Below, in pieces: positions 28,009 through 38,114 of a stretch of 64,000 nucleotides of DNA. Made by a program: the position numbers and the translations under genes. The stretch is from NCBI RefSeq assembly GCF_003334815.1, contig NZ_QOWO01000017.1. One strand, given 5' to 3'. Origin of the DNA: Escherichia coli (lineage in GTDB: Bacteria; Pseudomonadota; Gammaproteobacteria; Enterobacterales; Enterobacteriaceae). The notes under the pieces were generated by a model, which did no database searches, had not been told where the DNA came from, and saw nothing but the letters and a program-made list of their open reading frames with translations. How positions within the stretch are numbered: position 1 is the stretch's first letter; the number at the start of each line of letters is the position of its first letter.

Positions 28009-28090
28009 CGGGCGGATAAGGCGTTTTTGCCGCATCCGCCGTTCTGTGCACAATGCCTGATGCGACGCTGGCGCGTCTTATCATGCCTAT
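28009..28090. repeat. REP palindromic element(s) after proX
   Basis: GGCGGATAAGGCGTTTTTGCCGCATCCGCC and CCTGATGCGACGCTGGCGCGTCTTATCATGCCTA. Confidence 0.55.
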
Positions 28091-32498: not shown

Positions 32499-34037
32499 AT
32501 GCAACAGCAAAAACCGCTGGAAGGCGCGCAACTGGTCATTATGACGATTGCGCTGTCACTGGCGACATTCATGCAGGTGCTGGACTCCACCATTGCTAAC
32601 GTGGCGATCCCCACTATCGCCGGGAATCTGGGCTCATCGCTCAGCCAGGGAACGTGGGTAATCACTTCTTTCGGGGTGGCGAATGCCATCTCGATCCCGC
32701 TTACCGGCTGGCTGGCAAAGCGCGTCGGGGAAGTGAAACTGTTCCTTTGGTCCACCATCGCCTTTGCTATTGCGTCGTGGGCGTGTGGTGTCTCCAGCAG
32801 CCTGAATATGCTGATCTTCTTCCGCGTGATTCAGGGGATTGTCGCCGGGCCGTTGATCCCGCTTTCGCAAAGTCTATTGCTGAATAACTACCCGCCAGCC
32901 AAACGCTCGATCGCGCTGGCGTTGTGGTCGATGACGGTGATTGTCGCGCCAATTTGCGGCCCGATCCTCGGCGGTTATATCAGCGATAATTACCACTGGG
33001 GCTGGATATTCTTCATCAACGTGCCGATTGGCGTGGCGGTGGTGTTGATGACACTGCAAACTCTGCGCGGACGTGAAACCCGCACCGAACGGCGGCGGAT
33101 TGATGCCGTGGGGCTGGCACTGCTGGTTATTGGTATCGGCAGCCTGCAGATTATGCTCGACCGCGGTAAAGAGCTGGACTGGTTTTCATCACAGGAAATT
33201 ATCATCCTTACCGTGGTGGCGGTGGTGGCTATCTGCTTCCTGATTGTCTGGGAGCTGACCGACGATAACCCGATAGTCGATCTGTCGTTGTTTAAGTCGC
33301 GCAACTTCACCATCGGCTGCTTGTGTATCAGCCTCGCGTATATGCTCTACTTCGGCGCTATTGTTCTGCTGCCGCAGTTGTTGCAGGAGGTCTACGGTTA
33401 CACGGCGACCTGGGCAGGTTTGGCCTCTGCGCCGGTAGGGATTATTCCGGTGATCCTGTCGCCGATTATCGGCCGCTTCGCGCATAAACTGGATATGCGG
33501 CGGCTGGTAACCTTCAGCTTTATTATGTATGCCGTCTGCTTCTACTGGCGTGCCTATACCTTTGAACCAGGTATGGATTTTGGCGCGTCGGCCTGGCCGC
33601 AGTTTATCCAGGGGTTTGCGGTGGCCTGCTTCTTTATGCCGCTGACCACCATTACGCTGTCTGGTTTGCCACCGGAACGACTGGCGGCGGCATCGAGCCT
33701 CTCTAACTTTACGCGAACGCTGGCGGGGTCTATCGGCACGTCGATAACCACGACCATGTGGACCAACCGCGAGTCGATGCACCATGCGCAGTTGACTGAG
33801 TCGGTAAACCCGTTCAACCCGAATGCCCAGGCGATGTACAGTCAACTGGAAGGGCTTGGGATGACGCAACAGCAGGCATCAGGCTGGATTGCCCAGCAGA
33901 TCACCAATCAGGGGCTGATTATTTCCGCCAATGAGATCTTCTGGATGTCAGCCGGGATATTCCTCGTCCTGCTGGGGCTGGTGTGGTTTGCTAAACCGCC
34001 ATTTGGCGCAGGTGGCGGCGGAGGCGGTGCGCACTAA
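32499..34037 (+). CDS. emrB: Multidrug efflux MFS transporter EmrB
   Basis: N-terminus MQQQKPLEGAQLVIMTIALSLATF, 512 aa. Confidence 0.9.
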   Translation: MQQQKPLEGAQLVIMTIALSLATFMQVLDSTIANVAIPTIAGNLGSSLSQGTWVITSFGVANAISIPLTGWLAKRVGEVKLFLWSTIAFAIASWACGVSSSLNMLIFFRVIQGIVAGPLIPLSQSLLLNNYPPAKRSIALALWSMTVIVAPICGPILGGYISDNYHWGWIFFINVPIGVAVVLMTLQTLRGRETRTERRRIDAVGLALLVIGIGSLQIMLDRGKELDWFSSQEIIILTVVAVVAICFLIVWELTDDNPIVDLSLFKSRNFTIGCLCISLAYMLYFGAIVLLPQLLQEVYGYTATWAGLASAPVGIIPVILSPIIGRFAHKLDMRRLVTFSFIMYAVCFYWRAYTFEPGMDFGASAWPQFIQGFAVACFFMPLTTITLSGLPPERLAAASSLSNFTRTLAGSIGTSITTTMWTNRESMHHAQLTESVNPFNPNAQAMYSQLEGLGMTQQQASGWIAQQITNQGLIISANEIFWMSAGIFLVLLGLVWFAKPPFGAGGGGGGAH

Positions 34038-34045
34038 GTACAACT

Positions 34046-34075
34046 AAGCCAGTTCATTTGAACTGGCTTTTTTCA
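34046..34075. terminator. Bidirectional hairpin terminator between convergent emrB and luxS
   Basis: AAGCCAGTTCA-TTT-GAACTGGCTT followed by TTTTTT. Confidence 0.6.
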
Positions 34076-34100
34076 ATTAATTGTGAAGATAGTTTACTGA

Positions 34101-34616
34101 CTAGATGTGCAGTTCCTGCAACTTCTCTTTCGGCAGTGCCAGTTCTTCGTTGCTGTTGATGCGTACGTCACGTTCCAGAATGCTACGCGCAATATCCTGC
34201 GCTTCCTGCAACGAGTGCATCTGGTAAGTGCCACACTGGTAGACGTTCAGTTCCGGGATCTGATTCTGATCCTGCACTTTCAGCACGTCTTCCATTGCCG
34301 CTTTCCAGGCATCAGCAACACGCTGCTCATCTGGCGTACCAATCAGACTCATATAAAAACCGGTGCGGCAGCCCATTGGCGAGATATCGATAATCTCTAC
34401 ACCATTACCGTTAAGATGGTTACGCATAAAACCAGCAAACAGGTGCTCCAGGGTATGGATCCCTCTTTCTGGCATCACTTCTTTGTTCGGCACGCAGAAG
34501 CGCAGATCGAACACGGTGATTGCGTCGCCATGCGGGGTGTTCATTGTTTTCGCCACCCGAACTGCAGGCGCTTCCATCCGGGTATGATCGACTGTGAAGC
34601 TATCTAACAACGGCAT
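34101..34616 (-). CDS. luxS: S-ribosylhomocysteine lyase (AI-2 synthase)
   Basis: 171 aa; HTLEH metal-binding motif. Confidence 0.95.
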
Positions 34617-34651
34617 TTAGCCACCTCCGGTAATTTTTTTAAAAATTTTCT

Positions 34652-34678
34652 GAACTCTTTCTTCCCAGGCGAGTCTGA
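34652..34678 (+). promoter_or_regulatory. Sigma-E-type promoter of micA
   Basis: -35 GAACTC (34652-34657), 16-nt spacer, -10 TCTGA (34674-34678), start at about 34685. Confidence 0.7.
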
Positions 34679-34684
34679 GTATAT

Positions 34685-34757
34685 GAAAGACGCGCATTTG
34701 TTATCATCATCCCTGAATTCAGAGATGAAATTTTGGCCACTCACGAGTGGCCTTTTT
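34685..34757 (+). ncRNA. micA: Hfq-dependent sRNA MicA (SraD) with intrinsic terminator
   Basis: GAAAGACGCGCATTTGTTATCATCATCCCTGAATTCAGAGATGAAATTTTGGCCACTCACGAGTGGCCTTTTT matches remembered MicA; located between luxS and gshA on the opposite strand. Confidence 0.85.
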
Positions 34758-34765
34758 CTTTTCTG

Positions 34766-36349
<1,584 letters not shown>

Positions 36350-36394
36350 TTAATTAGCATAACTGTAATGGTGACCATATGTGCAGGCCTACAA

Positions 36395-36823
36395 TTAGTG
36401 CCACCACATCATGCCCTGAACGGTCGCTGCTGCAACTGCAACATAGCGTAACGCTTTACCAAGGCACAAAAAAAAGATTACCGGTCCCCACGAGATGCGC
36501 ATCCATCCCGCTAACAGACACAGTAAATCGCCAACCACGGGCATCCAGCTTAATAATAGCGTGACTGCACCATAGCGTTTCAGCCAGCCGGTAGCTTTCT
36601 CTTGCCAGCGCGATGTTTTACGCAATGGAAAGAAACGCCCAAGGATAACGTTAGTTAACCCTCCAAGGCTATTACCCATTGTTGCTGTTAAAACTAAAAC
36701 CCAGGGATGACTGATCCCGGAAAGCAACATTGCCACCAGCACGACTTCGGAGTTGCCGGGTAATAGTGTAGCGCTGAGAAAACTACTGGCAAACAACGAG
36801 AAAAGCGATAACGCTTCACTCAC
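36395..36823 (-). CDS. yqaA: DedA/SNARE-associated family inner membrane protein
   Basis: 142 aa. Confidence 0.85.
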   Translation of the reverse strand: MSEALSLFSLFASSFLSATLLPGNSEVVLVAMLLSGISHPWVLVLTATMGNSLGGLTNVILGRFFPLRKTSRWQEKATGWLKRYGAVTLLLSWMPVVGDLLCLLAGWMRISWGPVIFFLCLGKALRYVAVAAATVQGMMWWH

Positions 36824-37666: not shown

Positions 37667-37743
37667 TGGTGCATCCGGGAGGATTCGAACCTCCGACCGC
37701 TCGGTTCGTAGCCGAGTACTCTATCCAGCTGAGCTACGGATGC
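37667..37743 (-). tRNA. tRNA-Arg (anticodon ACG)
   Basis: Reverse complement GCATCCGTAGCTCAGCTGGATAGAGTACTCGGCTACGAACCGAGCGGTCGGAGGTTCGAATCCTCCCGGATGCACCA. Confidence 0.9.
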
Positions 37744-37941
37744 ATCGGGAAAACTTATTCTACTGCTGATATTGATACCGCTACTAAAGCCATATCAATT
37801 AAGAGATGGTGCATCCGGGAGGATTACTCGCCTTGCGGCTCGCCCTTCGGGCCGTTGCTAAAGCAACGTTATCATCCCTAGTGCCTGCGGTTAATACCGC
37901 TATCTCTTCGATACCTTCATTGCTGAAGGTTACGGAGAATA

Positions 37942-38018
37942 TGGTGCATCCGGGAGGATTCGAACCTCCGACCGCTCGGTTCGTAGCCGAGTACTCTATC
38001 CAGCTGAGCTACGGATGC
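37942..38018 (-). tRNA. tRNA-Arg (anticodon ACG), second identical copy
   Basis: Identical 77-nt sequence 275 bp downstream of the first copy. Confidence 0.9.
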
Positions 38019-38021
38019 AAA

Positions 38022-38114
38022 TGGCGGTGAGGCGGGGATTCGAACCCCGGATGCAGCTTTTGACCGCATACTCCCTTAGCAGGGGAGCGCCTTCAGCCTC
38101 TCGGCCACCTCACC
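38022..38114 (-). tRNA. serV: tRNA-Ser (anticodon GCU)
   Basis: Reverse complement GGTGAGGTGGCCGAGAGGCTGAAGGCGCTCCCCTGCTAAGGGAGTATGCGGTCAAAAGCTGCATCCGGGGTTCGAATCCCCGCCTCACCGCCA, long variable arm. Confidence 0.9.

Follow-up and report, generated by a model that had tools for sequence, protein, structure and literature searches.

The DNA analyzed here is a 64-kb stretch of Escherichia coli sequence (the window), in which the 171-aa LuxS open reading frame (luxS, 34101-34616, minus strand) and the 518-aa GshA open reading frame (gshA, 34766-36322, minus strand) are separated by 149 nt. Given these coordinates, the gene for the small RNA MicA (SraD) lies within the gap on the strand opposite to both neighbors; it is transcribed away from luxS and toward gshA. 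The 73-nt RNA is encoded by positions 34685-34757 of the plus strand, from its +1 G to the end of its U tail. Its sequence has the form GAAAGACGCG...GGCCACTCACGAGTGGCC-TTTTT and, read from the +1 G to 34757, is GAAAGACGCGCATTTGTTATCATCATCCCTGAATTCAGAGATGAAATTTTGGCCACTCACGAGTGGCCTTTTT.

The whole window was scanned with Rfam 15 at the gathering thresholds. The MicA family (RF00078) matched at 34685-34756 (+) with 83.9 bits (gathering score 41, E value 1.4e-11), and the alignment covers model positions 1-75 of 75, so it is not truncated; it ends one U short of 34757. Window positions 33683-36683 are 100% identical to 2813800-2816800 of E. coli MG1655 (NC_000913.3; 0 mismatches in 3001 bp), and the curated MG1655 ncRNA gene micA (b4442, 2814802-2814874) falls on 34685-34757, 73 nt long, with both ends in agreement. 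A sequence-only reading had placed a 73-nt MicA plus its terminator between luxS and gshA and had named a covariance-model scan beforehand as its refutation test. The coordinates hold, the scan returned the full model, and the 5' and 3' ends are those of the curated gene. The same reading described the element as a known envelope-stress regulator rather than a novelty, and we agree, as MicA is in Rfam, in the MG1655 annotation and in the literature. The element is the known MicA RNA with its known sigma-E promoter and is not novel. We therefore assign window positions 34634-34757 (+) to the E. coli micA gene, acting by the mechanism proposed below, with a probability of about 0.98.

The gene is nearly universal in the species. 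A 301-nt query around micA was present in 5424 of 5426 complete E. coli genomes, with a median of one copy per genome, and 4687 of the complete genomes matched it with at least 99% identity. The sequence-only reading also held that protein-based annotation would miss the element, and 12 RefSeq records among the matches listed indeed show only gshA and luxS. One RefSeq record examined, having PGAP-style locus tags, contains no feature between the two genes, and among the records compared micA is annotated only in the curated MG1655 record. A regulatory RNA, an alternative-sigma promoter and a terminator are thus recognizable from raw sequence, although routine annotation skips the gene.

Homologous loci were collected by an exact-pattern scan in which 22 bases of the MicA seed were specified, using one genome per species. 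This gave at least 120 enterobacterial micA loci that include Escherichia, Citrobacter, Enterobacter, Klebsiella, Yersinia, Serratia, Pantoea, Erwinia, Dickeya, Pectobacterium, Edwardsiella and Hafnia. The sample is confined to loci that match the seed, and distant MicA homologues fall outside it. Among the matches listed, luxS lies 5' of micA on the opposite strand at all 117 loci with room for it on the contig side concerned, and gshA lies 3' of micA on the opposite strand at all 114 such loci. Where there is room on both sides (111 loci), both neighbors are always present, and nine loci with room on one side only agree. The distance from the luxS ATG to the MicA +1 has a median of 72 nt among these loci and is 69 nt in the window.

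Note that two kinds of evidence are used below. The family match, the identity with the curated gene, the promoter geometry and conservation, the terminator, the synteny and the complementarity of the seed to ompA were computed in this work, whereas the literature on the identical E. coli sequence supplies the dependence on sigma-E and on Hfq, the repression of targets and the effect on luxS. The window gene has the same sequence, length, ends, two stem-loops and terminator as MicA of K-12 (SraD, psrA10; RF00078; b4442) and likewise shares its sigma-E promoter, luxS/gshA context and ompA-complementary seed; the gene itself shows no difference. MicA has a textbook place in the sigma-E response to envelope stress, and the present data leave that picture unaltered.

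The micA promoter

The -35 element GAACTC occupies 34652-34657 (+; -33 to -28) and is followed by a 16-nt spacer (34658-34673) and TCTGA (34674-34678), which with the preceding G forms the -10 element GTCTGA (34673-34678, -12 to -7). Six nucleotides, GTATAT, then separate TCTGA from the +1 G at 34685. The GAACTC-N16-TCTGA arrangement noticed in the sequence-only reading was therefore recovered at 34652-34678, 6 nt before the +1 G, and the full layout, GAACTC-N16-TCTGA-N6-G, has the spacing of about 16 nt, the distance of about 6 nt to the start site and the -10 C of sigma-E promoters. At rpoH P3 and degP the promoter reads GAACTT-N16-TCTGA. Calling the promoter near-consensus, as that reading did, is apt in so far as the E. 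coli micA promoter has been rated an excellent sigma-E match (PMC1851643), but overstated when positions are counted against the consensus GGAACTTTT / GTCAAA (PMC1804206), to which TGAACTCTT of the window agrees at 7/9 positions and GTCTGA at 4/6. For Salmonella micA the authors themselves counted one mismatch in the -35 and two in the -10 element (Papenfort et al., PMC1804206). Upstream of the -35 element is a block of A/T tracts at 34634-34649 (+), composed of T7 (-51 to -45), A5 (-44 to -40) and T4 (-39 to -36), which is likely an UP element contacted by the alpha C-terminal domains of RNA polymerase.

The pattern GAACTY-N15-17-TCTGA has a single match on both strands of the 64 kb. With 0.14 matches expected, and with one or more matches in 13 of 100 shuffled windows, the motif by itself is only weakly significant. 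What makes the promoter convincing is its 6-nt distance to an independently defined RNA 5' end together with its conservation across species. Among the matches listed there are 109 distinct upstream sequences, which were aligned on the +1 without gaps. The -35 core (A-32, A-31 and C-30) is conserved in 108-109 of the 109 promoters, T-29 in 89, and T-27 and T-26 in 108 each. Within the -10 element G-12 is found in 104 of these 109 listed promoters, T-11 and C-10 in 108 each, T-9 in 106 and A-7 in all, and the +1 start site is nearly invariant. The upstream tract (-50 to -45) is T in 88-108 of the 109, whereas spacer positions -24 to -17 are essentially random (0.1-0.4 bits of information). Apart from shared ancestry, this conservation is free of bias from the seed pattern used in the search. 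By comparison of these sequences, conserved boxes flanking a drifting spacer are the footprint of a -35/-10 promoter having a putative UP element.

The competing explanation is that the GAACTC/TCTGA pair is a chance match, as the shuffles allow, and that sigma-70 or sigma-S polymerase transcribes micA. We consider this very improbable. The boxes are kept while the spacer drifts in the 109 listed promoters, and a sigma-70 promoter scan found nothing on the plus strand upstream of 34685. Moreover, transcription of micA by the sigma-70 holoenzyme in vitro was unsuccessful, MicA was only about 40% lower in an rpoS mutant lacking sigma-S, and it was virtually absent in a delta-rpoE E. coli strain, whereas rpoE overexpression led to a rapid rise (Udekwu and Wagner, PMC1851643). 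The same study reported induction of E. coli MicA by ethanol, hyperosmolarity and heat shock and pointed to the invariable C of the -10 box and an AT-rich element 5' of the -35 box. Sigma-E dependence has also been published for Salmonella micA (PMC1804206). In the study of Rhodius et al. (PMC3326320), the micA promoter was one of those already active when sigma-E is at its basal level, and it competed strongly for polymerase in vitro; the UP effect at sigma-E promoters was set there by the A/T tracts of the proximal and the distal subsite. For an E. coli promoter of identical sequence, strictly sigma-E-dependent transcription is therefore on record (PMC1851643; see also PMC3326320).

One of the 5426 complete E. 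coli genomes has lost this arrangement. In strain p10B, a Houston blood isolate (NZ_CP103758.1; record positions 1190-1240 and 2990-3020), the sigma-E -10 box of micA, the counterpart of window positions 34674-34678, is the exact insertion point of an ISEcp1 unit. The unit carries the transposase and, of an open reading frame that reads MVKKSLRQFTLMATATVTLLL, no more than the first ~63 nt; this reading resembles a CTX-M signal peptide. TCTGA is present on both sides of the insertion, like a 5-bp target duplication. The p10B micA gene keeps its -10 element and +1 and is severed from the -35 element and the A/T tracts, and therefore it has probably been uncoupled from sigma-E.

RNA structure and the 5' seed

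The 73-nt MicA sequence folds with a predicted energy of -20.5 kcal/mol (z = -2.98), and none of 200 shuffled sequences folded as well. The predicted structure, in which a weak hairpin at the 5' end precedes stem-loop 1 (nt 23-44) and stem-loop 2 (nt 51-68), agrees with the Rfam consensus structure. Stem-loop 1 (34707-34728, +) is given by the minimum-energy fold, the Rfam consensus and alifold, and its pairs are kept in 77-81 of the 81 distinct homologues among the matches listed, with one exchange of G-C for A-U. An A/U-rich linker, AAUUUU (34729-34734), lies between the stem-loops and is a candidate internal Hfq site; it has been assigned as such (PMC4618604, Rasmussen 2005). The Rho-independent terminator (34735-34757, +) consists of the hairpin GGCCACU-CACG-AGUGGCC (34735-34752) and U5 (34753-34757). 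The terminator scan called GGCCACTCACGAGTGGCC at 34735-34752, with seven pairs (five of them G-C) and a 4-nt loop, followed by TTTTTCTTTT. Six pairs of the terminator stem are invariant among the 81 listed homologues and the seventh is compensatory, being A-U in 68 and U-A in 5, in addition to C-G and G-C forms. As the stems are almost invariant and compensatory exchanges occur in only two pairs among these homologues, covariation strengthens the family assignment only slightly over the Rfam score. The stability of MicA has been ascribed to stem-loop 2 together with the poly(U) tail, and the U tail is the proposed high-affinity Hfq site (PMC4618604). The fold, the terminator scan and the conserved pairs together give two stem-loops, an A/U linker and a terminator with a U tail, the arrangement of a putative Hfq-binding module.

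Two small open reading frames overlapping the RNA, a 48-aa frame at 34683-34829 (+) and a 46-aa frame at 34604-34744 (-), appear in the mechanical list of open reading frames and raise the question of whether a small protein is encoded here and the similarity to an RNA is incidental. The likelihood of this is negligible. The plus-strand frame has its ATG 2 nt before the transcription start and passes straight through the terminator. The homologues listed differ by indels of 1, 2, 5 and 8 nt in loops and linker, which rules out a conserved reading frame, and conservation peaks in the promoter boxes and the seed without codon-like periodicity. Finally, the full-length covariance-model match accounts for the sequence. 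Both frames were therefore rejected as coding.

The single-stranded 5' region of MicA (about nt 7-24; 34691-34708, +) is the seed that pairs with target mRNAs, for example with the translation initiation region of ompA. When nt 1-30 were hybridized in silico to the ompA leader, taken from MG1655 rather than from the window strain, the duplex had an energy of -23.2 kcal/mol as compared with -16.9 +/- 2.7 for shuffled seeds, of which 9 of 500 did as well. The continuous block pairs nt 7-24 with ompA GAUGAUAACGAGGCGCA and ends at -5; as it stops 5 nt before the AUG, the pairing covers the ompA Shine-Dalgarno sequence. (A calculation with full-length MicA returned a 65-nt 'duplex' that unfolds both RNAs and is meaningless; the seed segment was used in its place.) The 5' 27 nt of MicA are invariant in the 81 distinct homologues among the matches listed, a conservation that is partly circular because the search pattern demanded an exact match to 22 positions of the 23-nt seed. 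Hfq-dependent pairing of the MicA 5' single-stranded region is known to block ompA translation and promote decay of the mRNA, and phoPQ and several omp mRNAs are further targets (PMC4618604).

The action we propose for the window gene is as follows. Upon envelope stress or entry into stationary phase, sigma-E (RpoE) polymerase would recognize GAACTC-N16-TCTGA, aided by the A/T tracts, start at G 34685 and stop at the GGCCACU/AGUGGCC hairpin and U5 to give a 72-73-nt RNA expected to bind Hfq. The unstructured 5' end (about nt 7-24) would pair over the ribosome-binding regions of ompA and of further envelope-related mRNAs, among them phoPQ, lamB, ompX and tsx. The resulting block of translation and faster mRNA decay would lower the load of outer-membrane proteins and thereby close the sigma-E feedback loop. 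RybB, the other classical sigma-E-dependent Hfq-binding small RNA of enterobacteria, belongs to the same promoter class (PMC1804206, PMC3326320) and like MicA is a sigma-E-induced RNA that represses omp mRNAs through a 5' seed combined with a terminator/Hfq module. It differs from MicA in sequence, locus (ybjK-ybjL) and target set, and the Rfam scan reported no RybB match in the window.

The opposite strand and luxS

MicA is also an antisense RNA. The luxS P1 promoter is of the sigma-S type and its transcripts start at a G 332 nt 5' of the luxS ATG (Udekwu, PMC2956633). Mapped onto the window, this start is position 34948 (-), inside the 3' end of gshA; the plus strand has C there, so the minus strand has the G reported. 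The K22 primer of the same study maps to 34769-34794. Transcripts from P1, as mapped from PMC2956633, run antisense across all of micA. MicA overexpression and RNase III alter the forms of the luxS transcript, an RNase III-dependent luxS species requires MicA, and transcripts read through to luxS (all PMC2956633). Through its full complementarity to the long luxS leaders begun inside gshA, MicA would affect their RNase III-dependent processing. MicA thereby resembles CopA/CopT of plasmid R1, a cis-antisense pair processed by RNase III, in being perfectly complementary to the P1/P2 leaders of luxS. Unlike CopA/CopT, its main documented action is in trans by short, imperfect, Hfq-aided pairing (PMC4618604).

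The hairpin that ends MicA folds on the minus strand as well, within 34725-34775, with an energy of -12.8 kcal/mol (z = -2.63); it lies 14 nt past the gshA stop codon. The terminator scan called no terminator on that strand at the micA hairpin, where AAAAUUUCAU follows rather than a U run. On the minus strand the hairpin may serve as a leaky terminator of gshA or as a site of RNA processing, either of which would fit the published read-through to luxS.

These observations allow the view that micA acts mainly in cis, as an antisense to the luxS leader and/or as a bidirectional terminator for gshA, with regulation of omp mRNAs in trans being secondary. The P1 transcripts that cross the whole gene, the changes in luxS forms brought about by MicA and RNase III and the hairpin shortly beyond gshA are all in its favor, but we consider it unlikely. 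The minus-strand hairpin is not followed by a U run and went uncalled by the terminator scan, transcripts demonstrably reach luxS (PMC2956633), and conservation within the RNA is highest at the 5' seed, the segment complementary to ompA, one of the well-documented trans targets (PMC4618604). Action in cis is an additional role of MicA beside its action in trans and not a replacement for it. We also entertain, as a long shot, a leaky attenuator between gshA and luxS, in which sigma-E-driven transcription of micA, or pairing by MicA, would tune how much gshA- or P1-derived transcript passes the hairpin and reaches luxS. If true, such an attenuator would tie the metabolism of glutathione and AI-2 to envelope stress, a step further than the account of Udekwu (2010).

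A sigma-70-like site, ATGATA-18-TATACT (9/12 matches), was seen at 34678-34707 (-), antisense to the micA 5' end and directed toward luxS. Sites of this quality occur at chance frequency (1 found versus 0.8 expected), and its position has no obvious coincidence with the luxS 5' ends of PMC2956633.

Other features of the window

A match to naRNA4 / CssrE (RF02564) was found at 28010-28087 (+), scoring 72.2 bits (gathering score 59.5). As the sequence looks like paired REP-type palindromes, this is probably no dedicated gene but an ordinary REP/BIME element.

Outside micA the window strain is K-12-like yet not exactly MG1655, as seen from two tRNA loci. The tRNA at 5638-5713 (-) has the anticodon CAT and was labeled 'Met' by ARAGORN; its near-counterpart in MG1655 is ileY, a tRNA-Ile(CAU) gene. 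The position of ileY is offset by 7 nt from the register set by micA, so at least one small indel relative to MG1655 must lie at about 5.7-33.7 kb. The second locus is the tRNA cluster at 37667-38114 (-), downstream of yqaB, which contains two tRNA-Arg(ACG) genes and one tRNA-Ser(GCU) gene. The MG1655 counterpart has four Arg genes (argQ, argZ, argY and argV) plus serV. The window follows MG1655 up to 37895 and from 37936 onward matches it with a shift of 414 nt, and the best match among complete genomes is only 99.4% (MC1061). Comparison of the two sequences suggests that two repeat units were lost by recombination or that the assembly collapsed them.
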